Positions 43,468 through 62,427 of a stretch of DNA of 64,000 nucleotides are shown here, piece after piece. Source of the DNA: an uncultured Gammaproteobacteria bacterium. GTDB taxonomy: Bacteria; Patescibacteriota; Patescibacteriia; Patescibacteriales; UBA12465. A program made the translations under genes and the position numbers. Every line of letters begins with the position of its first letter. Within the stretch, counting starts at the first letter, position 1. The notes under the pieces are model-generated. The model was not told the origin of the DNA and did no database searches. It saw only the letters and a list, made by a program, of their open reading frames with translations. The stretch lies in contig CAZTUJ010000001.1 in the NCBI GenBank assembly GCA_964616855.1, positions 256,301 to 320,300 on the forward strand, in the 5' to 3' direction.

Positions 43468-44508
43468 ATGGCACGCAAAGCCAAAAAAATAATCTTTCGG
43501 AAGAATTTTACTCGCAATACTACCCTGATTCTCCAACAGCTTTGGCCGGTGGTGATGGAAGAGGGCATTGAGGAGTTAAAGATTATTAACCCCTATCGCC
43601 CGACCGTAGTGGACTATATTAATCAGGGTACTTGTGAGATTTGGGAAAACGACCTCGCCGTGGCTTTTATTGCCCGGAAATTTATTGAATATTGTCAAAA
43701 AGAGCCGGAGCAGGCTCTTTTGTTTTTGCAAGGCTATCAGCGGAAAATCAAGAAGATGGAGCCGATTTGGCAAAAGGGAGTTTTAGACAGCCTACCAGCC
43801 CTCAAGAAGTTCATTGCTCTAGTGAAAAAGAATATGGTCGGTGATTTATTCATCGTCTATGTCTCCGAAATTAAGAATATAGACCCTAAAGTCAGGGAAT
43901 TAGTTTTGAAGCTCAGAGCCAGTGATCACTATTTCTCGGCCAGTAATGAAGTTTTTAGTAATACTTTAAAGAAACTCTTTCCTCAAGTGAAGAAATATGT
44001 GGATGTTATTGGTTTAGAAGACTTAGATAAGTTGCCGCCACTGTCAGAACTCAAACAGCGCTATCAAAACTATATCTGTGTGGGTTATAGCTACGGTTGT
44101 ATTCAAACTCTTTCCGATTATGCCAGCATGCATCCGGAATATACTTTTATACAAGAGAAGCTGGCAGTAAAGGATCAGATTATCAGGGGCCGGGCCGCTA
44201 ACTTAGGGCAGGTGCAGGGAATAGCAAAATTAATCTTTACCACCGCTGATTTAAAGAAGGTGAAAAAAGGGGATATTTTAGTCTCACCCATGACTACCGT
44301 TAACTTCATGCCCGCCATCAAGAAAGCCGCTGGCATTATTACTGATGAAGGCGGGATTGCCTGTCACGCCGCTATTGTGGCCAGGGAACTGAAAAAGCCC
44401 TGTTTAATTGCCACTAAGACAGCCACGCAGTTTTTCCAAGATGGGGATTTAGTGGCCCTAGAAGCCGATAAAGGTTGGGCAAAGTTGATAAAAAGAGGGA
44501 GCAAATAG
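43468..44508 (+). CDS. PEP-utilising-enzyme mobile (phosphohistidine swivel) domain protein, paralog 1
   Basis: C-terminus GIITDEGGIACHAAIVARELKKPCLIATK...DGDLVALEADKG. His codon 44365-44367. The N-terminal about 230 aa are helical, with no ATP-grasp motifs seen. Confidence 0.8.
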   Translation: MARKAKKIIFRKNFTRNTTLILQQLWPVVMEEGIEELKIINPYRPTVVDYINQGTCEIWENDLAVAFIARKFIEYCQKEPEQALLFLQGYQRKIKKMEPIWQKGVLDSLPALKKFIALVKKNMVGDLFIVYVSEIKNIDPKVRELVLKLRASDHYFSASNEVFSNTLKKLFPQVKKYVDVIGLEDLDKLPPLSELKQRYQNYICVGYSYGCIQTLSDYASMHPEYTFIQEKLAVKDQIIRGRAANLGQVQGIAKLIFTTADLKKVKKGDILVSPMTTVNFMPAIKKAAGIITDEGGIACHAAIVARELKKPCLIATKTATQFFQDGDLVALEADKGWAKLIKRGSK

Positions 44509-44632: not shown

Positions 44633-44707
44633 TCCCAGGTAGCGCAGCGGTAGCGCAGTTGGCTGTTAACCAATTGGTCGTGGGTTCGAATCCCACCCTG
44701 GGAGCCA
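44633..44707 (+). tRNA. tRNA-Asn (anticodon GTT), CCA encoded
   Basis: Hand-folded cloverleaf. Acceptor TCCCAGG/CCTGGGA, D stem GCGC/GCGC, anticodon stem GTTGG/CCAAT with loop CTGTTAA, T arm GTGGG-TTCGAAT-CCCAC, discriminator G and CCA. Confidence 0.9.
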
Positions 44708-45662: not shown

Positions 45663-46319
45663 ATGGATAGCTTAAATTCCATAAGTAGTAGCGGATTAGC
45701 GGTCGACATTGACGAGACTTTGTCTTGGACTATTGGATTTTGGATTGAGGAAATGCAGAATAAATTTGGTAATCCAGAGAATCTCACTATTAAAGAAATG
45801 GTTGAGAAGTATCGATATACCCAAAACGTTCCTTATTGGCAACACGCAGAGGCTCTTGAATGGATAGATAAAAAAATTAATTCCAATGAAACTCAAGAAA
45901 ATTTGCCGTTAATTGATGGTTCTAGTGCCTATCTTAATAGAATAAATCAAATTATTCCCATTGTTGCTTATATTACTATTAGGCCGGAAAGAGTTTTAGA
46001 GGGAACAAAGAATTGGTTAAAAAAACATAATTTTCCCTCAGCTCCAGTTATATGTAGGCCAAATGAACTAGTGCATAATAATGGTAATGAATGGAAGGCT
46101 AAAATTCTAGAAGAGTCGTATCCCAAAGTATTTGGTATTATTGATGATAATGCTAAATTGTTAGATTATCTCGACATTAATTATAAGGGTAAGGTTTTTT
46201 TGTATGATCATCATGATAACCTCGGGTTTCCATTTGCTGTTGCCTGCAAAGATTGGCTACAAGTTTATGAGGAGGTAAAAAAATGTATTTTAGAGAGCAA
46301 TAATATTGTCTCAATTTAA
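45663..46319 (+). CDS. HAD-superfamily hydrolase, 5'(3')-deoxyribonucleotidase-like
   Basis: Motif I VDIDETL (DxDxT) near the N-terminus and a late GIIDDN acidic motif. The subfamily assignment is tentative. Confidence 0.5.
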   Translation: MDSLNSISSSGLAVDIDETLSWTIGFWIEEMQNKFGNPENLTIKEMVEKYRYTQNVPYWQHAEALEWIDKKINSNETQENLPLIDGSSAYLNRINQIIPIVAYITIRPERVLEGTKNWLKKHNFPSAPVICRPNELVHNNGNEWKAKILEESYPKVFGIIDDNAKLLDYLDINYKGKVFLYDHHDNLGFPFAVACKDWLQVYEEVKKCILESNNIVSI

Positions 46320-49452: not shown

Positions 49453-49480
49453 TACATTAATCGTACTTTAATTTTGTTCG

Positions 49481-49512
49481 CTCCCCCTTTGCAAAGAGGG
49501 GGAGTTTTTTTT
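49481..49512 (+). terminator. Rho-independent terminator after valS
   Basis: CTCCCCC...GGGGGAG is a GC-rich stem followed by T8. Confidence 0.8.
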
Positions 49513-49539
49513 GACTTTTTTTGCGTTTTATAGTAATTT
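49511..49539 (+). promoter_or_regulatory. Putative promoter of the NTase/radical-SAM unit
   Basis: TTGACT (49511-49516), a 17-nt spacer, then TAATTT (49534-49539). The -10 box is weak. Confidence 0.4.
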
Positions 49540-49569
49540 CAAGGTAAATATATACCTAAAACATATTTT

Positions 49570-51060
49570 ATGACGGCCGAAAACAAGCACTTGCGCGAAA
49601 CCTTACAGAAGCTGATTTCATCAGACTCTCTTTTGTCGGCCACGATTGTGAGCGTCTATATTTATGGCAGCTTCATTACTAATGAGTTAACGGAAAAAAG
49701 TGACATTGACTGTTTGGTGGTAGCGAGGGAGATAAGTCCAGAATTGCTTAGCAAAATCAAGTTAATGAAAGCGGCGATTGAGATGGAAATGAAACGGGAG
49801 TTTTTTGTTAATATCGCTGCCAAAGATGATTTTTCGCCGGAGAACTTTGCTCAAGGTTTTTTTACGCATCGCGAACGCCCCTATTATTTCTTATTTGAGT
49901 TAAAGTATAACTTCCAGCTGTTTTATGGAGCTGACTTTGTTGCCCAAATCCAGTTTCCGGAGATGTTAGAATTGCGGGTAAAAGAGGAGTGCGTGCGTTT
50001 AATGAAAAATTTACAGTATATTAATAATAAGCTGTTAATTAATAGTGAAACAAATTTATATTCTAAAGACGCGGCTTTAAAAAATATCCTTTTTGCTGTA
50101 AAAATTTTTCAGATATTCTATCAATACCGCTTTAACAGCTATCAGGAGAGCGCCGCTTTAGCCTCGCAGGTTTTAGTCTCTCAGTTGCCTGTGACCGTTT
50201 ATAATTACGTTAAAAAAAATCTGGGAAATGCTGAGACTATAGAAATTAGAGCTGCTGACTCCATCGCCTTTTATCAAGCTGCGATCAGATTGATGACCGA
50301 GCAGATCGGACCGGATAAGAAGACTAAGGGCTGTTTGGCTTACAATGATTGTCTGGGTTATTTTTCTGGCAAGCAAGAGCTTATAGCTGGCGGGGAAGCA
50401 CTTGATGTGATTATTTTTTTAAACGGTTTGCCGCGGCCGGCACAAACTCAGGAGATATCTGACTACTTTGTCAGGAATGGTTATTTATTTATAAATTTAT
50501 ATTATCCCGGCTACTGGGAGGCTCCGGGAGAAATGAGCTTTTCTAATTTAGGCGCGCAAGTAATCGCTTTTGCTCAGGCCCTTAAGGCAGGTGAAATGTT
50601 TGAGGCTTTTTCTGGTCGTAATCTGACCTTGAAGATTGGTAAGATTTTTTTAGTAGGTTCTAGTTTTGGGGCTTCCGTTTCCTTGGCAGCCCAAGATGAT
50701 GCCTTCTCTAAAATTGTGGCGGTCAGCCCCTTAATTGACTTTTCGGCTCATCAAGAGACTATTGACATATTAAGGGATAAGCTGGTATTCTTCAGGGAAG
50801 TCGTGCGCCTATCTGCAGACAGTCAGACTGAGGAAAGTTTGTTTGTTTTAGACCAAAAGTCTCAAAAATTACGCTTATCACCAGAGAAAATCCTCTTGGT
50901 TGCTGATAAGTTAGACAAGCAAATAAATTTTGCCAGCGTGCAAGAATATGCTGACAGTCATAAGATTAGTCTTTTGAAGACTGATAGCGGCGACCACGGC
51001 TATAAGATTATTAAACAAGATCGTATTTTTGAACAGATTTTTAACTTCATTAAAAACTAA
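49570..51060 (+). CDS. Fusion protein: Pol-beta-type (ANT/AadA-like) nucleotidyltransferase plus helical domain plus alpha/beta hydrolase
   Basis: N-terminal VYIYGSFITNELTEKSDIDCLVV (GS-x10-DxD). C-terminal nucleophile elbow LVGSSFGAS and terminal SGDHGY His motif. Confidence 0.7.
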   Translation: MTAENKHLRETLQKLISSDSLLSATIVSVYIYGSFITNELTEKSDIDCLVVAREISPELLSKIKLMKAAIEMEMKREFFVNIAAKDDFSPENFAQGFFTHRERPYYFLFELKYNFQLFYGADFVAQIQFPEMLELRVKEECVRLMKNLQYINNKLLINSETNLYSKDAALKNILFAVKIFQIFYQYRFNSYQESAALASQVLVSQLPVTVYNYVKKNLGNAETIEIRAADSIAFYQAAIRLMTEQIGPDKKTKGCLAYNDCLGYFSGKQELIAGGEALDVIIFLNGLPRPAQTQEISDYFVRNGYLFINLYYPGYWEAPGEMSFSNLGAQVIAFAQALKAGEMFEAFSGRNLTLKIGKIFLVGSSFGASVSLAAQDDAFSKIVAVSPLIDFSAHQETIDILRDKLVFFREVVRLSADSQTEESLFVLDQKSQKLRLSPEKILLVADKLDKQINFASVQEYADSHKISLLKTDSGDHGYKIIKQDRIFEQIFNFIKN

Positions 51061-51067
51061 ATTAACG

Positions 51068-52132
51068 ATGAAAACAGATGACTACTTCAGCACGAGCAAG
51101 TGGAACTGGCTGGTTTCTTATATTAAAGATATAGACCGGAATAATTCTGCCTTGCCTTTTACCCTGCGCCTTGACCTGACGGCCGATTGTAACTTTGGCT
51201 GTCCTAATTGCTTGTATCAAAGCAAATCTTCCACCATCCAGAAGGATGTCCGTTATTCCTACCCCGGTTCACAGGAACTGGACTATTCCCGCCTAATCAA
51301 ACTCATTAAGCTGTTTGCTAAGAAAGGGCTTAAATCCGCTATCATTACCGGTGGCGGCGAACCCTTTGTTTACGAAAAGTTTGAAAAAGTGCTTGATGCT
51401 TTGTTCAGATGCAAGATCGAAGTGGGTATTATTACCAACGGGACCAAGTTGACCCCAGCTTTTATCAAAAAGTATTCTGCTAACAAGTATCTGAAATGGA
51501 TCAGAATCTCTCTTGATTCTGCCACCGCCGAAACTTGGAGCCGCGTCCATCGTCCCGCCGATAACTCCTCTTTTGAGGAATTAATCGAGAATATCCGGCT
51601 GCTGGCCAGCGACAAAGACCGTAATTTCCTGGTTGGCATAAACTTTCTGGTTATGCCCATTAACTACAAGGAGATTGTTCCTGCTTACCATTTGGTTGAA
51701 AGTTTGGGGGTGGATAACATCAGATATACCCCTGTATTTACCAAAGCTGGTAAAAAGATTTATGAGGGCATCAGGGAAGACATGGATAGTAAACTCCAGG
51801 AAGTTATTGGTTTAATCAATCCCCGCGCCCAGGTTAATTTACCCAGATTTAATTTTCTGGACACACCTAATAGTACGGAGCGTTGCTGGTTTTCCCATTT
51901 TTCCATTAATCTCGGCATTGATTCCACTCTTTATCCCTGTTGCCTGAAGAAATATGTTAAAGGCATGGGTACGCCCCTTACTCCTGAAAATTTTGATAAA
52001 GACCTGCGTTCCTATTTCCGGAAGATGAAGAAGTTTGACGCTCTGTCCTGCCAAGATTGCATGTATAAGAAGTTTAACGAATTTTCCGAAGAAGCCAGGC
52101 ATAATGGCAGTCTGGATAATTTCATACCTTAA
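51068..52132 (+). CDS. Radical SAM enzyme with C-terminal SPASM/twitch-like Cys motifs
   Basis: CNFGCPNC (CxxxCxxC), GGGEPF and IRISLDS. The C-terminus has CWFSHFSINLGIDSTLYPCC and CQDC. ATG 51068 is 8 nt after the upstream stop. Confidence 0.8.
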   Translation: MKTDDYFSTSKWNWLVSYIKDIDRNNSALPFTLRLDLTADCNFGCPNCLYQSKSSTIQKDVRYSYPGSQELDYSRLIKLIKLFAKKGLKSAIITGGGEPFVYEKFEKVLDALFRCKIEVGIITNGTKLTPAFIKKYSANKYLKWIRISLDSATAETWSRVHRPADNSSFEELIENIRLLASDKDRNFLVGINFLVMPINYKEIVPAYHLVESLGVDNIRYTPVFTKAGKKIYEGIREDMDSKLQEVIGLINPRAQVNLPRFNFLDTPNSTERCWFSHFSINLGIDSTLYPCCLKKYVKGMGTPLTPENFDKDLRSYFRKMKKFDALSCQDCMYKKFNEFSEEARHNGSLDNFIP

Positions 52133-52150
52133 AACTAAATTTTAGAAATG

Positions 52151-52181
52151 AAAAAGCTATCCTTATTGGGGATAGCTTTTT
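52151..52181. terminator. Bidirectional terminator between convergent genes
   Basis: AAAAAGCTATCC-ttattgg-GGATAGCTTTTT, with A/T runs on both sides. Confidence 0.8.
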
Positions 52182-52196
52182 AAATTTCGAAAGTTA

Positions 52197-53453
52197 TTAT
52201 AGGATTGTTGGTAGCAATTCTCTGATTTTTTTTAAGCCAGAGTTACTGCCTTGATTGTTACGAAGTTCCGAGATATATCTTCGTGAAAGGAGGTCGAACC
52301 AGAGGTCGTGGTAGCTTGAGTAGAATTCAAACAGTTCTAGTTGTGAGAGCTTTCTAATTAGTTTTTGACAGCTCTTAACAATTTCCATTTCCGTTTCACT
52401 CCGTTCATCAGCCGGTAATTTTTTCTGTGCGTCAGTTTGTTCCAAAAATAAGAGGACGTTTTTCTTCTTGATTACCAGTTTGGAGACATCAATTATCTTT
52501 TGGTCAAAATCAATCGCTTGTCCGATATTGGCCGAAAGGTAGAGGAGTTTCAAATGTTCCCAGGAGTATTTTTCCAGGAATTTGTTGATATCGGTAATTT
52601 CCGGAAAGTTTCCGTATTTACTGATTTTTTTACCGGCGCGCGTGAGCATGCCGTGAACAATTACGTTAATTTCTGGGTCCAGCACTGGCTGGTTGTTGGC
52701 CAGAAAGTAATAAAGGTAGCGCCCCAAGATGTCTTGCCCTAAAATCACAGTTTTTATCGGCGGCAGGTCCAGCTTAACGGCGAGAGTCGGGAAAAGGGAA
52801 TAGACAAATTTAGGGTCAAACACTTTGCCTTTAAGGAGTCCGTTGATAGGTTCGGCGGAAAAGCCGTCGGTTCTTTCTTTGGTAATGATAAATTCATCTG
52901 GCATGTCAGAAAATACGCCTAAAAATTTGTTTTTCATCTTCTCGGGAATGAAAACAAAATTTTCAGTTAATGCTCTGATTGATTTTTTATCAATCTTGAT
53001 AAAAAGATCGGTGGCCATTTTTTGGGTAAGGGACGTAGAACATTGTTTGCACAATTTTAAAGGTTGTTCAGCTGGTCCCAGGTAGGAATTACAGGTTTCA
53101 CAGTACCAAGCATTATACTCCTTGATTTTTACTGTTTTCTCGGAGATCATTTTTGATACAATTTCTAAGATGTAATTATAGACTTCAGGGTCGTCATCCA
53201 AAAAGTGGATATAGTTGTTTGGTTGGCAATAGCCATCCACCAACGCTTTTGCTCTATCAAATAAAAGATTGAAAGCTTCGGCGTTGTTTGTTCCATCTTT
53301 CTGTCTGAATTTACCCAGCGCGTTCCATCCGATTACTATTTCTGTATCCGGATTAAAGCGCTTGATGAGGTCTAAGAGTATTACATCCATAAAGCTGCCA
53401 ATATGCATTTCCTGTCTTAACTGCATAGGAGCGTTAACGGCTGTTGTTTTCAT
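52197..53453 (-). CDS. Truncated MetRS-like class I aminoacyl-tRNA-synthetase paralog (degenerate HIGH)
   Basis: 418 aa. MHIGS sits in place of HIGH. Zn-knuckle-like WYCETCNSYL...CKQCSTSL. VHGMLTRAGKKISKYGNF sits in the KMSKS position. Short helical C-terminus. Confidence 0.6.
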   Translation of the reverse strand: MKTTAVNAPMQLRQEMHIGSFMDVILLDLIKRFNPDTEIVIGWNALGKFRQKDGTNNAEAFNLLFDRAKALVDGYCQPNNYIHFLDDDPEVYNYILEIVSKMISEKTVKIKEYNAWYCETCNSYLGPAEQPLKLCKQCSTSLTQKMATDLFIKIDKKSIRALTENFVFIPEKMKNKFLGVFSDMPDEFIITKERTDGFSAEPINGLLKGKVFDPKFVYSLFPTLAVKLDLPPIKTVILGQDILGRYLYYFLANNQPVLDPEINVIVHGMLTRAGKKISKYGNFPEITDINKFLEKYSWEHLKLLYLSANIGQAIDFDQKIIDVSKLVIKKKNVLLFLEQTDAQKKLPADERSETEMEIVKSCQKLIRKLSQLELFEFYSSYHDLWFDLLSRRYISELRNNQGSNSGLKKIRELLPTIL

Positions 53454-53634: not shown

Positions 53635-54510
53635 ATGATTTGGTTTATTCTTGTTATTACGGCTGTAGTTTTTGTCGTAATTGAAACTATTTTAGAAAAA
53701 AAAGCTTTAAGCGATGCCCGTACTTTCAACTTTACGGCCATGTTTGCGTTTGGTAACGCAATTATTTCTATCCCCTTATTATTGGTAGCAGATCTTACGC
53801 CGATTAATTGGCAAATACTAATACTCATTTATATTGCCTCGGTGTTTTCGACGATAACATCTTTACTCATTTTTAAAGTGATAAAACACGAGTCAATTAG
53901 TGAGGTGGCACCTATTTTAGCCATATTACCTTTAGTGGTCTCACTATTTGCCTATCTTATTTTGGGAGAAACATTAAGCCTTTTTCAAGCCTCAGGGCTA
54001 ATACTAATGGTGGGCGGCATATTAATCCTTGAATTTAGTAATTACAAATACAGCAACGGCATTTTTAGAAAAGGCAGGAAAAAATATATTCTCTATATTA
54101 TCCTCAGTCTTATTTTAGGAGCAATTGGCGTAATATTTGATAAAGCACTTCTTTCAAATTTTAATGTTAACCCACTTGCTTACCTGGCGCTGATACAACT
54201 ATTTATCGGTATAAACTATATATTTTTTATTGGCATTAAGCCTAAATTATTTCCAAGTTTTAAGAGTGATCTCTCCAGGTATTGGCAAATACTCATATTA
54301 ATTGCTTTATCAGTGGTCATTCATCGTTATTTATATTTATCCGCGATAAAAATTGCTGCAAGTGCTGGTCTAGTGGTGGCTGTATTTAAATTATCTGCGC
54401 TTTTTAATGTTTTTGTTGGTAAGAAATTTTTTGCTGAAACTGGTATATTAAAAAAAGTCTTAGCTACTTTTGTTGTGCTTGTGGGATTATTTATGTTGAT
54501 TTTAAACTAG
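53635..54510 (+). CDS. EamA/DMT-superfamily transporter
   Basis: 291 aa, about 10 TM helices in two similar halves, each ending in a ...G(G)ILIL/VGLFMLIL segment. Confidence 0.6.
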   Translation: MIWFILVITAVVFVVIETILEKKALSDARTFNFTAMFAFGNAIISIPLLLVADLTPINWQILILIYIASVFSTITSLLIFKVIKHESISEVAPILAILPLVVSLFAYLILGETLSLFQASGLILMVGGILILEFSNYKYSNGIFRKGRKKYILYIILSLILGAIGVIFDKALLSNFNVNPLAYLALIQLFIGINYIFFIGIKPKLFPSFKSDLSRYWQILILIALSVVIHRYLYLSAIKIAASAGLVVAVFKLSALFNVFVGKKFFAETGILKKVLATFVVLVGLFMLILN

Positions 54511-56635: not shown

Positions 56636-57706
56636 ATGAAAACAAAAGCAAATATCTCTCAAATTAAATCAGAAAAGTGGGTTAAAAATTGGTCAGGCAA
56701 TTGGCACACAGCCTTTACCACTCTATATTATGCCTATACAGACGGCTTAAAGCCTTATATTGGAAAAAATTTAGATACCAATTTATTAATCTGCGAGCAA
56801 AAGGTGAGTTCAAACTATATCGCTAAAAGAGTGTTGGATAAATATGGTAAATACATAGCTGCTTTAATTGTGAAGGATAATAAATTGGCCGCCAAGTTGG
56901 CAAAAGATACCGTTGTTACGGCTGAAAATCTATTTAAAATAATGGCGAGACTAAAAAATAACAGCGATCTCACCCTGTATAATTTATTAGAGCTTAAATC
57001 TAATTTTTATCTACACGTCCCTCCTCATTTTTCCATGAAAAAAGTGGTCGACTATTTGCCCGAAAGATTACAAAAAAAGTTAAGCCCTGGGCTTATTGCC
57101 GCCAGACTAAAAACAGAAAATTTATTTAACGCCGTCGATTTAGCTTTAAGAAAATATACAGAATTAATCGCTAAGAAAACTGGATATCCCTTAGCACTAG
57201 CAGATTTTTTAACAATAGATGAGATGGAAAATTATTTAAAGAATAATAAATTACCATCCAAGAAAGAGCTTACTAGTCGCTCTAAAGGTTTGGCGTTCTT
57301 TTGTGCAGGAAAAAATGTAAAGCTACTGACCGGCTCTTCTTATAAAGATTTACAAAAATACCTCGTGAGTTTTTCTGGTAACGAATTAAAAGGAGCTATC
57401 GCCTATAAAGGTTTAGCCAAGGGAAAGGCCAGGATTGTACTCGACCCCTTTAAAGTAAAAAAATTTGATAAAGGGGATGTTTTAATTACAGGAATGACCA
57501 GACCGGAATTTTTGTCTTTAATGAAAAAAGCCTCCGCTTTTGTGACTGACGCTGGCGGTTTGTTATCACATGCGGCAATTGTCGCTAGGGAATTAAAGAA
57601 GCCATGTATTTTAGCCACTGAAAATGCTAGTAAGGTGATAAAAGATGGTGATTTGGTGGAGGTGGATGCAAATAAGGGGATAGTGAGAATTTTAAAAAGA
57701 GCTTAA
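56636..57706 (+). CDS. PEP-utilising-enzyme mobile (swivel) domain protein, paralog 2
   Basis: C-terminus AFVTDAGGLLSHAAIVARELKKPCILATE...DGDLVEVDANKG. His codon 57569-57571. Confidence 0.8.
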   Translation: MKTKANISQIKSEKWVKNWSGNWHTAFTTLYYAYTDGLKPYIGKNLDTNLLICEQKVSSNYIAKRVLDKYGKYIAALIVKDNKLAAKLAKDTVVTAENLFKIMARLKNNSDLTLYNLLELKSNFYLHVPPHFSMKKVVDYLPERLQKKLSPGLIAARLKTENLFNAVDLALRKYTELIAKKTGYPLALADFLTIDEMENYLKNNKLPSKKELTSRSKGLAFFCAGKNVKLLTGSSYKDLQKYLVSFSGNELKGAIAYKGLAKGKARIVLDPFKVKKFDKGDVLITGMTRPEFLSLMKKASAFVTDAGGLLSHAAIVARELKKPCILATENASKVIKDGDLVEVDANKGIVRILKRA

Positions 57707-58390: not shown

Positions 58391-59860
58391 ATGCCCGCTA
58401 AAACCAAAAGATTCGAAATATTATTTGAAGAATATAACATCGTCCCTCAGGTGGCTTTTTGTTTGGGTAATGCCGTCAGTTCTGAGATTTCTAAATATGG
58501 CTGTGGCCGGGCAGATAGTGCCGTTACTCTCTGGGAGGGCTGGGATAGGCAGTTTATCTGTATTGATAGTAATTCGGGCTTGCAGCTAGCGGAGAGGCTT
58601 TTTATAAAAATTAAAGCTGAGCCTCAATTCGGTCGGGAGGTAGTAGCTGAGATTAAAGATAATAGTGATGAAATTTTATTTCACAGTAAAAAGAATTTTC
58701 CTAAAGACATTAAGAGTATTTCTAATCGGGAACTATATCGGCTGTATCAAGATTTTTTAGATTTAACGCAAAAACAATTTGTCTCCGGTTTAGTACCGAT
58801 GCTTATTGAAGCAATAGACGGCCATCTGTCCGGCTACATGCTTCAATACTTGCTGGACAAGACTCAGGATCTTAGCTTGGCTAATAATCTCTTTAGCTTA
58901 TTATCCACTTCTAGCCAAAAAAGTGATTTAAAAAAAGAAGAGGCAGATTTTATTAAATTAGTTAAAGATAATTCTTTACAGGGAGTGCAACTGGAAAGAA
59001 AGTTAAAGAGCCATTACCGCAAGTATTTCTGGATACCTTATGACTTTCGAGGCCCGGGTTGGAGTTTAGATTACTTTATTACCCGCTTCCATGAATTGAA
59101 GAAAGAAAGGATTAATTGGGACAAAAAGCTGGCGGCCGATTACTTGCAGGCCAAGCAATTACTGAGCAGGCAAAAAGAAATAATTAGTCAGTATCAGATT
59201 GATAAAAAACATCAGCAGTTATTTGAAGTTTTACGGGGCTTCCTTTTTTCCAAGCCCTATCGCAAGGGGCGCTATACCCATTCCTGCTATTATCATAATC
59301 AAGTTGGCAAGGAAATTGCCCGGAGACTGAATATTACCTCTAAACAGGTTTGGTTTCTATTACTCGAAGAAACTAAAGAAATGTTGTTGAAGAAAAAAGA
59401 GCCTGATGTTAATCTTCTCAATGAACGCATGAATTATTCGGTAATTTTGTCGGAGCAAGGAGTTAGTAAATTTATTGTCGGTAAAGAGGCAAAAAAGATG
59501 GCAGAAAGAATTAATATGAAGACGGTCGATGAAAGTGCTCAAGAAATATCAGGGCAAGTTTCGCAGCCGGGCAAGGTCAGGGGAATTGTAAAAATTATCT
59601 TGGAAGTCAAAGATATTGAAAAAATAAAAGAAGGTGAAATTTTAGTTTCTATTGCTACTAATCCAGATTTATTGCCGGCCATGAAAAAAGCAGCCGCCAT
59701 CGTTACCGATGCGGGCGGCATCACCTGTCACGCCGCGATTGTTTCCCGAGAGTTAGGCACCCCTTGTATTATTGGCACTAAAATTGCGACCAAAAGATTA
59801 AAAGATGGCGACTTAGTAGAGGTGGATGCTAATCAGGGATTAATTAGGATATTAAGTTGA
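58391..59860 (+). CDS. PEP-utilising-enzyme mobile (swivel) domain protein, paralog 3
   Basis: C-terminus AAIVTDAGGITCHAAIVSRELGTPCIIGTK...DGDLVEVDANQG. His codon 59729-59731. Confidence 0.8.
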   Translation: MPAKTKRFEILFEEYNIVPQVAFCLGNAVSSEISKYGCGRADSAVTLWEGWDRQFICIDSNSGLQLAERLFIKIKAEPQFGREVVAEIKDNSDEILFHSKKNFPKDIKSISNRELYRLYQDFLDLTQKQFVSGLVPMLIEAIDGHLSGYMLQYLLDKTQDLSLANNLFSLLSTSSQKSDLKKEEADFIKLVKDNSLQGVQLERKLKSHYRKYFWIPYDFRGPGWSLDYFITRFHELKKERINWDKKLAADYLQAKQLLSRQKEIISQYQIDKKHQQLFEVLRGFLFSKPYRKGRYTHSCYYHNQVGKEIARRLNITSKQVWFLLLEETKEMLLKKKEPDVNLLNERMNYSVILSEQGVSKFIVGKEAKKMAERINMKTVDESAQEISGQVSQPGKVRGIVKIILEVKDIEKIKEGEILVSIATNPDLLPAMKKAAAIVTDAGGITCHAAIVSRELGTPCIIGTKIATKRLKDGDLVEVDANQGLIRILS

Positions 59861-60750: not shown

Positions 60751-62427
60751 ATGAAGACTAATACCAGCGAGAAAATCAAGCAGTATTTGCAGGAGCATAA
60801 ATTTGCTAGCGCCAAGAGCCTGACGGATTTTACCAAGTTGAGCCCGCGGGCGATGTTTAAGCAACTAAAGAATCTCCTGGATCAGGGTGTGGTCGGCAAG
60901 ATGGGTCAAGCACCCAAAGTCTTGTATTATTTGGCAACTGCCAAGAAAAAAATCGACATCCCCTATCAATCCGAGTGGCTCGTTTTGGAAAAAGAAGATT
61001 ATGCCAATTATCTTTTTGTGGCCGCCGCTTGGGAAGGTTATACGGTAATGGCAAAAAATTGGGGATTCATTAATGGTAATTTTTTAAGCGCTGAATATAT
61101 TAAGCGTTCCTGCAATCTTTTCGCTTCTAAGTTAGAATATCAGAAAATGAACAATGTTCATTTTTCCATGCTTTTTAACAACCCTAAAGCCTGGGACCGT
61201 TTGCATAGAATCACTTTTAATAATTCTAAGCGGATGTTTGCCTGGGCACAGAGCAAGCTGAGCCTTAATGAAAAGAAATTGAGTGACAAGAAAGTGGTGG
61301 ATATTATTGAAAGATTTAATCAGCTGCAAAAAGATGTTCACTGTCCGCGCGGACCAATGTGGTGTCTAGAAACACCTTCTAATCTGGTGAGTGATTATTT
61401 GCGTAATTATTTAGAGGAACAAGCCCGTGAAGTCGGCAAGACAAAGATTAAACCGTATTTAGCCTTTCAGTCTTTAAGTGCATCTTTGTCCGATAGCATT
61501 TGGACCAAGGAGGAACTGGCCCTTATTAAAATTTGTAAGATTGTTGATAAAAAGAAAAGATTAAAAAAATTAGAGGAACACGCCCGGCAGTATGAATGGC
61601 TGGAGTACGGCTTAGAGGGGAAGAAAATGAGCCTTAAAGATTTTACAGAGCGGATGAATAAGATTTTGAAAAAGAATCCGGATCTCTTAGCGCGTAAGCT
61701 GGCTAAGGAAAAGAAAGATTTGGCTCGCAGTCAAGAAAAAATTATCCGTGAATATAAGATTGACGAGAAACATCAAAAGATTTTTGCCATTGTTAGAGAT
61801 TCGGTGGCTGCCCGCCTTTATAGTAAAGATTCTCAGTTTTTCGGCTATTACGCTTTAGAGAAAATTTTGGAGGAGTTTGGACGGAGAACCGGCCTTAACT
61901 TAGAGCAAGTACGTTTTTTGGCACCGCGAGAATTCCGGCAGGCCTTACTGGAAAAGCAAGATTTTAGCACCCTTACAAAAGCTAGGATGGACTATAGTCT
62001 TCATGCATCCAATGAAGGCAATACCGTTTTTTTTCAGGGGGAGCAAGCAAAAAAAGTAAAAAAGAAAATGAATTTTAATTTGCATCAAGATGACCTTAAG
62101 GAATCTAAGCTTGTCAGCGGCCAACCCGCCTATCCAGGAATAGTTAGGGGGAGGGTAAAGATTGTTAATACGATTAACGAGATATTTAAAGTCCATCAGG
62201 GAAATATTTTGGTCTCCCGGATGACTAATCCAAGTATTTTGCCGGCCATGAAGAAGGCGGTTGCTATCGTGACGGATATCGGCGGTATTACCTGTCACGC
62301 CGCTATCGTTGCCAGAGAATTAAGAAAGCCCTGCATTATTGGCACCAAGGTGGCCACCCAAATCTTTAAAGATGGGGATGAAATTGAAGTTGATGCTAAT
62401 GAAGGCAGAGTCTATCTTTTAGATTGA
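60751..62427 (+). CDS. Winged-HTH plus helical domain plus PEP-utilising mobile (swivel) domain protein, paralog 4
   Basis: N-terminus IKQYLQEHKFASAKSLTDFTKLSPRAMFKQLKNLLDQGVVGKMG is wHTH-like. C-terminus VAIVTDIGGITCHAAIVARELRKPCIIGTK...DGDEIEVDANEG. His codon 62296-62298. Confidence 0.8.
   Translation: MKTNTSEKIKQYLQEHKFASAKSLTDFTKLSPRAMFKQLKNLLDQGVVGKMGQAPKVLYYLATAKKKIDIPYQSEWLVLEKEDYANYLFVAAAWEGYTVMAKNWGFINGNFLSAEYIKRSCNLFASKLEYQKMNNVHFSMLFNNPKAWDRLHRITFNNSKRMFAWAQSKLSLNEKKLSDKKVVDIIERFNQLQKDVHCPRGPMWCLETPSNLVSDYLRNYLEEQAREVGKTKIKPYLAFQSLSASLSDSIWTKEELALIKICKIVDKKKRLKKLEEHARQYEWLEYGLEGKKMSLKDFTERMNKILKKNPDLLARKLAKEKKDLARSQEKIIREYKIDEKHQKIFAIVRDSVAARLYSKDSQFFGYYALEKILEEFGRRTGLNLEQVRFLAPREFRQALLEKQDFSTLTKARMDYSLHASNEGNTVFFQGEQAKKVKKKMNFNLHQDDLKESKLVSGQPAYPGIVRGRVKIVNTINEIFKVHQGNILVSRMTNPSILPAMKKAVAIVTDIGGITCHAAIVARELRKPCIIGTKVATQIFKDGDEIEVDANEGRVYLLD

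Follow-up and report, generated by a model that had tools for sequence, protein, structure and literature searches.

The locus considered here raises the question of what a small group of enzymes does when each of its domains falls in a known superfamily but none can be assigned to a curated family by that family's own criteria. It lies on contig CAZTUJ010000001.1 of assembly GCA_964616855.1, in a stretch of 64,000 nt (positions 256,301 to 320,300 of the forward strand) that is called the window below and whose own numbering is used throughout. The original prediction described a two-gene unit in which a fusion of a nucleotidyltransferase (NTase) and an α/β-hydrolase (gene 1) is followed by a radical S-adenosylmethionine (SAM) enzyme (gene 2), and proposed that the pair modifies a small molecule or nucleotide. 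The unit proves to be larger, as a convergent gene for an aminoacyl-tRNA synthetase (aaRS)-like protein belongs to the conserved core. The proposed role is still the best-supported reading, drawn from context only. We put at about 45% the probability that this locus forms the heart of a rare and vertically conserved set of enzymes tailoring a nucleotide- or sugar-linked small molecule, either a metabolite or a precursor of a cell-surface glycoconjugate. The hosts of the module are ultra-small symbionts, namely Falkowbacteria-like Patescibacteria and at least one archaeon. It stands out most for its synthetase-like family and for its distribution across candidate phyla radiation (CPR) bacteria and archaea.

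Both predicted open reading frames (ORFs) are confirmed from the sequence. Gene 1 (49570-51060, + strand) encodes 496 aa, in which an NTase and helical module is fused to the hydrolase, and gene 2 (51068-52132, +) encodes the 354-aa radical SAM enzyme after a gap of 7 nt. The ATG at 51068 is preferred over an upstream TTG at 51029 as the start of gene 2, because alignments of its homologues begin at MKTDDYF. The third gene (52197-53453, −) runs convergently with gene 2 and encodes a 418-aa protein resembling a truncated class-Ia aaRS. Relatives were searched for in 5.8 billion protein clusters, which yielded 11 for gene 1, ~13 for gene 2 at ≥31% identity, and 10 for the aaRS-like gene, the latter on contigs matching in size those that carry genes 1 and 2. 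Genes 1 and 2 are adjacent in all relatives, and the pairing on which the original prediction depended thus recurs. They overlap by 4 nt in L003, L004, and L008 and are separated by 1-7 nt in L006, L007, and the window, a tight spacing that indicates translational coupling. The aaRS-like gene accompanies them on every contig long enough to show it, and the trio was inspected directly in L001/L010, L004/L005, L006, L007, L008, and L009, the last being Candidatus Falkowbacteria. In the most divergent bacterial case, L003 (radical SAM protein 39% identical), the three genes are co-directional and overlapping, and the third protein is remotely homologous to the aaRS-like protein (hhalign probability 93%, E 3.5e-7; tblastn E 1e-7). 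The partner genes occur in none of 80 loci of more distant radical SAM relatives. The NTase-helical module is likewise scarce, with only 175 clusters found among 1.84 billion representatives in an exhaustive profile search.

The distribution of the module follows that of its genomic surroundings. It adjoins a valyl-tRNA synthetase (ValRS) gene in the window, L001, L004, L007, and L009, and this synteny persists although L007 and L004 differ by an inversion. The radical SAM proteins of the window and L004 are 58% identical, the ValRS proteins 53-60%. The G+C content of the module resembles that of its surroundings and gives no signal of horizontal transfer, and viral contig collections contain neither a close radical SAM relative nor an aaRS-like relative. 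Hence, the module is vertically conserved and not mobile.

The families sit in Falkowbacteria-like Patescibacteria and extend to an archaeal contig, L128, which encodes L7Ae, S28e, L24e, and Spt5. The L128 radical SAM gene matches the family with an hhalign probability of 100% (E 2e-52), and a 471-aa NTase-hydrolase does so with 99.6% over 438 columns. Between these two genes lies that of a 402-aa protein with TPPLGIKLNIGT (NIGT) and KKLSKY motifs, which parallel NAPMQLR...HIGS and KKISKY of the aaRS-like protein in the window. L125 and L127 also encode the N-terminus of this protein, next to their fusions. Its motifs and position point to a probable but weak homology to the aaRS-like family. 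The start of the L128 radical SAM gene as called (331 aa) is probably too far downstream, since an in-frame ORF from 5574 gives 384 aa. The ~1.7 kb upstream of this gene (L128:3823-5574) contain no called gene and only tiny ORFs.

Residues 1-248 of gene 1 (49570-50313, +) form a Pol-β-type NTase core and an α-helical domain. Membership of the Pol-β superfamily was judged by the motif hG[GS]-x9-13-Dh[DE]h together with a hidden Markov model (HMM) score over the cut-off, and gene 1 belongs to it on both counts, with 29.6 bits against 26.9 for PF18765 and 28.1 against 21 for PF01909. The core reads Y32-G33-S34...D45-x-D47, with G33, S34, D45, and D47 invariant in homologues; a third metal-binding carboxylate was not identified in this core. 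The helical domain carries the signature F98-x-H100-R101-x-R103, in which F98, H100, R101, and R103 are invariant across the family and which reads F-x-H-x-x-R in the wider NTase family. An AlphaFold2 (AF2) model of the protein (predicted local distance difference test, pLDDT, 87) consists of the NTase core, a five-helix domain to around residue 247, and an α/β-hydrolase domain. Matches of the N-terminal module to PDB sequence profiles are limited to the MNT/ANT core, and the top 50 Foldseek matches of the whole model concern the hydrolase, with none for the NTase or helical domain.

The original prediction likened this module to the aminoglycoside nucleotidyltransferases (ANTs), a claim of which the Pol-β core stands and the ANT identity does not. 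The ANT(3'')/(9) and MNT/MntA proteins share with gene 1 an hG-S-x10-D-x-D core and an NTase plus helical domain of ~250 aa. However, only a ~60-residue core aligns, and gene 1 has the F-x-H-R-x-R signature, the hydrolase fusion, and no HEPN partner. ANT(9) is the top NCBIfam match at 29 bits against a cut-off of 340, over aa 12-93 only, with other NCBIfam ANT models at ≤17 bits. DUF4111 is not matched in a Pfam search, and the PDB profile match to AadA (E 0.01-0.04) covers aa 18-75 only. ANT(3'')/ANT(9) membership was rejected on these scores, far under the curated cut-offs, and on the missing DUF4111. A HEPN-MNT (type VII) toxin-antitoxin system was also rejected, as the MntA antitoxin family reaches 20 bits where the cut-off is 60, a Pfam search of gene 1 and its neighbours turned up no HEPN domain, and the protein has 496 aa including the hydrolase domain.

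These comparisons bear on a possible function in detoxification or resistance, in which the ANT-like NTase and a kinase of the aminoglycoside phosphotransferase (APH) type would inactivate a compound of the aminoglycoside or aminocyclitol type produced by neighbouring organisms. Such a function would suit the ANT(9) match, the ANT(3'')/(9)-like architecture of the N-terminal module, and the APH-family kinases that adjoin the module in four relatives. It is nevertheless the least probable of the explanations considered, and a very improbable one, given the distance of ANT(9) from its cut-off, the restricted alignment, and the missing DUF4111. The APH genes are nearer to the CotS and homoserine-kinase types than to APH(3'), and neither a radical SAM enzyme nor an aaRS-like ligase has a place in known resistance mechanisms.

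The C-terminal module of gene 1 (aa 250-496; 50317-51060, +) is predicted to adopt an α/β-hydrolase fold with a GSSFG nucleophile elbow and to be a serine hydrolase. The modelled domain matches esterases, thioesterases, and lipases in the PDB (Foldseek E 4e-9 to 1e-7, top probability 1.0), which together with the conserved Ser and His bears out the fold first proposed from the letters. Its motifs are G363-S364-S365-F366-G367 and H476-G477, with the Ser365 codon at 50662-50664. S365, D446, D449, and H476 are invariant among homologues, so the acid of a Ser-Asp-His triad would be Asp446 or Asp449. Pfam hydrolase HMMs remain under their cut-offs (Abhydrolase_6, 15-17 bits against 26.3).

The fusion of the two modules is evolutionary and not an artefact of assembly, which had been a concern, as proteins of 496-504 aa with this architecture are present in at least 10 independent assemblies. 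Separate forms also exist. The L001 lineage has a 250-aa NTase without the hydrolase domain that shares 60% identity with gene 1 across aa 8-247, and stand-alone NTase modules of 240-250 aa occur in L001, L094, and L126. In L091, the gene of a stand-alone hydrolase (E 3.5e-18) diverges from that of the radical SAM enzyme, the 240-aa NTase of L094 is convergent with it, and in L126 the hydrolase, NTase, and radical SAM enzyme are encoded by three separate adjacent genes. Since these proteins are separate neighbours in L091, L094, and L126, the fusion unites functionally linked proteins. Beyond the core family, the 58 best NTase relatives include fusions to NUDIX (6/58), HAD, and histidine phosphatase (His_Phos_1) domains. 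All three are nucleotide or phospho-ester hydrolases.

Gene 2 is a member of the radical SAM superfamily, matching PF04055 with 71.7 bits against a cut-off of 29.5 (E 1e-19). Its cluster motif C41-x3-C45-x2-C48 and the G95-G96-G97-E98 motif are invariant in homologues; the motifs quoted in the original prediction are present in both genes, and most are likewise invariant. At the C-terminus lie C273, C291 (C292), C328, and C331 with the spacing C-x17-C-x36-C-x2-C, and C273, C291, C328, and C331 are invariant. This arrangement reads as the four-cysteine pattern of twitch-type enzymes, which would hold a single auxiliary cluster, and not as the seven-cysteine pattern of SPASM domains. The single auxiliary cluster of BtrN is bound by a similar C...C...CxxC pattern. 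Gene 2 resembles BtrN and SkfB in its four invariant C-terminal cysteines, with SkfB also its top Foldseek match, but differs from such twitch enzymes in falling under the cut-off of the NCBIfam family NF033640 (50 bits against 170) and, unlike SkfB, in lacking a RiPP recognition element (RRE; RiPP, ribosomally synthesised and post-translationally modified peptide). A SPASM domain (PF13186 / TIGR04085) was rejected, as PF13186 gives no match at E ≤ 1, though it does in distant homologues, and only 4-5 C-terminal cysteines are present. Of the predicted SPASM/twitch radical SAM enzyme, the radical SAM assignment and the C-terminal cysteine set therefore hold and SPASM does not.

Gene 2 reaches the cut-off of no curated family, which answers the concern that it might be a well-characterised housekeeping enzyme. 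MoaA and viperin, both nucleotide-acting enzymes, are its top matches at the sequence-profile level. Viperin (NF038283) scores 69.4 bits against a cut-off of 180 over aa 37-203 only, and the PADLOC pVip model 71 bits over the radical SAM core only; on this basis, identity as a prokaryotic viperin, a family also defined by an NTP-binding C-terminal extension free of any auxiliary cluster, was rejected. MoaA (GTP 3',8-cyclase) scores 58.9 bits against 284, with a PDB profile match over aa 32-255 only, and was rejected as well, the spacing of the cysteines differing from the CX2CX13C of the MoaA C-terminus. The maturase of tungsten-cofactor oxidoreductases, second-best in NCBIfam with 260 residues aligned, scores 69 bits against 380, and this family, anSME, PqqE, TYW1, and others were rejected as far under their cut-offs. 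The AF2 model of gene 2 (pLDDT 83) matches SkfB, CteB, DesII, SuiB, BlsE, viperin, MoaA, and anSME in Foldseek searches. The best TM-scores belong to BlsE, at 0.69/0.74 over 349 columns. Basic residues conserved in gene 2 are K11, R34, R146, R219, R260, and K294/K295, which might form a phosphate-binding site at the opening of the barrel.

The presence of SkfB, CteB, SuiB, and anSME among these matches raises the prospect that gene 2 is a protein or peptide maturase, acting on a domain of gene 1, on the aaRS-like protein, or on an unrecognised peptide in the manner of anSME, QhpD, tungsten-enzyme maturases, or RiPP enzymes. The rank of the tungsten-enzyme maturase and the matched stoichiometry that translational coupling with gene 1 suggests would both be in keeping with this. 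However, every maturase family is far under its cut-off. The radical SAM core begins around residue 30 of gene 2, compared with around residue 100 in SkfB, SuiB, and TigE; there is therefore no space for an RRE of ~100 aa, and the protein has no N-terminal extension. As originally predicted, no precursor peptide is evident, with small-ORF scans giving no credible or conserved micro-ORF in either intergenic region flanking genes 1 and 2. A RiPP maturase was rejected on these grounds. In addition, the radical SAM gene is kept in L001, where the hydrolase domain is lost, and relatives from beyond the family belong to sugar clusters instead of peptide clusters. Maturation of a protein or peptide is thus improbable.

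The viperin matches raise a further prospect, that of anti-phage defence or another form of conflict, in which a viperin-like enzyme would make a modified nucleotide and the MNT-type NTase with its hydrolase would act as effector or regulator. Prokaryotic viperins are the best matches of gene 2 in both NCBIfam and PADLOC (69-71 bits), and the NTase core of gene 1 matches the PADLOC candidate families PDC-S09 and PDC-M05A besides MntA. NTases fused to NUDIX domains, as in the relatives described above, are common in conflict systems, and a toxin-antitoxin pair and phage-like genes lie near the L006 module. All PADLOC matches of genes 1 and 2 are, however, at the level of the cores, and the auxiliary-cluster cysteines that are invariant here are not known from viperins. 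Defence islands are typically patchy, whereas this module has a narrow, syntenic, and vertical distribution, is conserved to a degree similar to ValRS, is absent from viral contigs, and has an unremarkable G+C content. A defence function is therefore very unlikely.

The third core protein has the same mixture of recognisable ancestry and altered detail. In it, HIGS replaces HIGH and KISKY replaces KMSKS, and a CxxC...CxxC knuckle is retained, all three motifs being invariant. The best PDB profile match is the methionyl-tRNA synthetase (MetRS) of A. aeolicus (E 1.3e-7) over residues 90-323, which include the KMSKS region. The top NCBIfam match is ValRS (E 3e-9, aa 239-381), and alignment with the adjacent ValRS gives an hhalign probability of 87%. 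Pfam detects neither an editing domain nor Anticodon_1, the C-terminal helices span only ~100 aa, and PF09334 gives 20.2 bits without any significant stretch. The scores are 35.7 bits against a cut-off of 738 for ValRS (NF009687) and ~20 bits against cut-offs of 336-598 for MetRS. A canonical MetRS or ValRS was rejected on the degenerate motifs and the missing anticodon domain, the homology being confined to the catalytic core, and the family is without a Pfam or NCBIfam model of its own. In class-Ia enzymes, the aspartate of the [FW]-D-x-x-G motif binds the α-ammonium group of the substrate. A manual alignment to the neighbouring ValRS tentatively suggests that this residue has been swapped for an invariant Asn44.

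Non-canonical class-I aaRS paralogues include the cysteine ligase MshC and GluQ-RS, while in EpmA/EpmB an aaRS paralogue works with a radical SAM enzyme. The protein encoded at 52197-53453 resembles these in its truncated core, its HIGH- and KMSKS-like motifs, and the tailoring enzymes alongside it. It differs in deriving from the Met/Val (class Ia) branch instead of CysRS, GluRS, or LysRS, and has no detectable similarity to the paralogues themselves. By analogy, an adenylate-forming ligation onto a non-tRNA acceptor is suggested.

The same descent can be read differently, as the sign of a system acting on the 3' end of tRNA or another RNA. Here the aaRS-like protein would charge tRNA or a tRNA-like RNA, the NTase would extend the RNA 3' end, and the hydrolase would deacylate it. 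The radical SAM enzyme would modify a base, the ribose, or the aminoacyl moiety, while a kinase and CysQ-like phosphatase found in relatives would handle 2'/3' phosphates. CCA-adding enzymes and tRNA-nucleotidylating toxins belong to the Pol-β NTase superfamily, and the retained HIGS, KISKY, and zinc knuckle, the repeated position beside ValRS despite inversion, and the best score of the IMPase-like neighbours with CysQ, a 3'-phosphoadenosine phosphatase, are all compatible with an RNA substrate. Against this, the anticodon-binding region is cut to ~100 aa without an Anticodon_1 match, the HIGH motif degenerates to NIGQ in L003 and NIGT in L128, and the Asp that would bind the α-amino group seems to be replaced by Asn44. 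A single block inversion in slowly rearranging genomes could account for the position beside ValRS. Rfam and tRNA scans found no conserved RNA gene near the module, only a tRNA-Asn at 44633-44707 that is unrelated to it. The UDP-glucose dehydrogenase (UGDH)-like gene and the nucleoside diphosphate sugar (NDP-sugar) context of relatives, both described below, are also ill-suited to an RNA role. Overall, an RNA-directed role is unlikely, though less so than peptide maturation or defence.

Clues to the substrate come from genes that accompany the module in relatives. L004, L006, L007, and L008 carry an inositol monophosphatase (IMPase)-like phosphatase and an APH-like kinase divergently from gene 1, fused to one another in L006 and L008. 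CysQ, HisN, and FBPase/IMPase are the best-scoring families for the phosphatase, and the kinase resembles the CotS and homoserine-kinase types. In L127 and L128, the fusion is followed by a 273-278-aa protein of the UDPG_MGDP_dh (UDP-glucose/GDP-mannose dehydrogenase) family, reduced to its N-terminal and central domains. The nearest relatives of gene 2 outside the family (25-31% identity, full length) belong to Lachnospiraceae, Selenomonas, and DPANN archaea. Across 29 analysed loci, their flanks are rich in a second radical SAM-SPASM gene, a split transketolase (16 of 116 flanking genes), NDP-sugar epimerases and dehydratases, RmlD, DegT, HldE-like kinase/cytidylyltransferases, and methyltransferases.

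These distant radical SAM relatives (L011-L088, for example L034:3708-11471) usually form tandem radical SAM-SPASM pairs that adjoin genes for a split transketolase, a SIS isomerase, an HldE-like protein, an NDP-sugar dehydratase, and a methyltransferase. These loci appear to represent an uncharacterised pathway to a branched or modified NDP-sugar. Their radical SAM genes have C-terminal cysteines in common with gene 2 but no NTase-hydrolase or aaRS-like partners, the transketolase, epimerase/dehydratase, and HldE-like genes taking their place.

The closest characterised parallels to gene 2 are the radical SAM enzymes BlsE, of the blasticidin S pathway, and DesII, which have nucleoside- or nucleotide-sugars as substrates. 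Both, like gene 2, consist of a radical SAM core with a C-terminal extension, and BlsE gives the best superposition and a profile match of E 3.5e-10. BlsE is a cytosylglucuronate decarboxylase with a glucuronate-derived substrate (PMC3715490), which is paralleled by the UGDH-like gene, whose product would make a uronic acid, in archaeal relatives of the module. The identity to BlsE is, however, only ~18%, with a sequence match confined to the core (aa 33-215). Further genes of the blasticidin type are absent here, and the NTase-hydrolase and aaRS-like partners have no counterpart in the BlsE and DesII pathways. Literature searches returned nothing relevant on this gene combination or on the sugar-cluster radical SAM relatives. 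Together, the sugar-cluster relatives, the NTase fusion partners, and the BlsE match favour a nucleotide- or sugar-linked small molecule over a peptide.

The genes themselves, with their domains, catalytic motifs, strict co-occurrence, and rarity, are established; for the tailoring of such a molecule, we infer a substrate class, an order of steps, and a chemistry as follows. The Pol-β NTase module would nucleotidylylate the substrate at a hydroxyl or phosphate. The twitch-type radical SAM enzyme would then take a hydrogen atom from a sugar-like carbon, leading to oxidation, decarboxylation, dehydration, or epimerisation, as with BlsE and DesII on nucleoside- and nucleotide-sugars. With ATP, the aaRS-like protein would form an acyl- or aminoacyl-adenylate and ligate the group to the intermediate, and the Ser-Asp-His hydrolase would finally cleave off an ester-linked group. 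In relatives, phospho-transfer by the IMPase-like and APH-like proteins or alcohol-to-acid oxidation by the UGDH-like protein may be added.

Several points weigh against a tailoring pathway of this kind. Function is read wholly from context and remote similarity, and the NDP-sugar link belongs to paralogues at only 25-31% identity. The peptide-modifying SPASM enzymes SkfB, CteB, and SuiB resemble gene 2 in fold to about the same degree as BlsE and DesII. Searches of the 64-kb window by tblastn found no IMPase, APH, GT2, PNP, or UGDH-like genes, and the IMPase/APH and UGDH-like accessories are thus not obligatory. The hydrolase domain is also lost in the L001 lineage. The 402-aa archaeal protein matches the aaRS-like profile with an hhalign probability of only 4%, and an aaRS-like protein persistently adjacent to ValRS is equally compatible with a tRNA-related role.

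A more specific version of the tailoring reading is possible but rather doubtful. It holds that the module represents a previously unknown pathway common to CPR bacteria and DPANN-like archaea, in which a synthetase-derived ligase that works on a non-tRNA acceptor (or with a non-α-amino acid), a twitch radical SAM enzyme, and an NTase-esterase together make an (amino)acylated compound of the nucleotide-sugar type. If so, the product might decorate the cell surface in a new way or serve as a metabolite in the episymbiotic lifestyle, and the aaRS-like protein would be the founder of a new functional family among class-I synthetase paralogues. The genomes of CPR bacteria and DPANN archaea are minimal, and much of their retained content is without an assigned function. 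The module, with at least four catalytic domains kept across 30-90% sequence divergence and apparently two domains of life, is extremely rare in public data and offers a tractable entry to lineage-specific biochemistry. Solving either this radical SAM clade or the related NDP-sugar clusters of gut Firmicutes could annotate the others. Should the function be an ordinary step of surface-glycan tailoring, the value would be modest and lie mainly in better annotation.

The transcription signals around the module define its limits. The upstream ValRS gene ends in a strong intrinsic terminator at 49480-49513 (+), made up of an 11-bp G+C-rich stem (49480-49505) and a T8 run (−20.2 kcal/mol, z −3.8). 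Gene 1 therefore starts a new transcription unit, of which this terminator marks the 5' boundary. The promoter proposed at 49511-49539 (+) is unsupported. It has a good −35 element (TTGACT), but the sole −10 at 17-nt spacing, TAATTT, agrees with the consensus at 3 of 6 positions; the site was not reported by a consensus scan, and promoter-like sites in the region number 11 against 10.5 expected from shuffles. The bidirectional terminator predicted at 52151-52181 fares better. This hairpin lies between gene 2 and the convergent aaRS-like gene, is common to both, and has U-runs on both strands. Its folding energies are −22.7 kcal/mol (+) and −17.3 kcal/mol (−) with z-scores of −5.6 and −5.5, and none of 200 shuffles folds equally well.

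The surroundings of the module include some minor features of their own. In L004, the module-adjacent ValRS (L004:10553-12580, −; also L005:5927-7954) has only 676 aa compared with 811 aa in the window. In a BLAST comparison with the window ValRS, it lacks residues 192-337, the region of the CP1 editing domain, and is 53-60% identical over the remainder. This ValRS of a CPR bacterium may therefore be editing-deficient. Directly past the aaRS-like gene of L006 (L006:6516-12796) lie a ParE/Phd toxin-antitoxin pair, a Phage_CRI replication initiator, and an HTH_17 gene, which suggests an integrated mobile element at the border of that module. Four paralogues stand on both sides of the module in the window (43468-44508, 56636-57706, 58391-59860, and 60751-62427, all +). 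Each ends in the mobile (swivel) domain of PEP-utilising enzymes (E 1e-22 to 1e-25), preceded by an N-terminal region with no Pfam match. Upstream of ValRS (45663-46319, +) is a homologue of the HAD-type NT5C-like 5'(3')-deoxyribonucleotidases (25.0 bits against a cut-off of 24.8), which is consistent with the nucleotide-scavenging lifestyle usually ascribed to CPR bacteria. On the other side, divergent from the aaRS-like gene, lies a gene of the EamA drug/metabolite transporter family (53635-54510, +), whose product could move a substrate of the module out of or into the cell.

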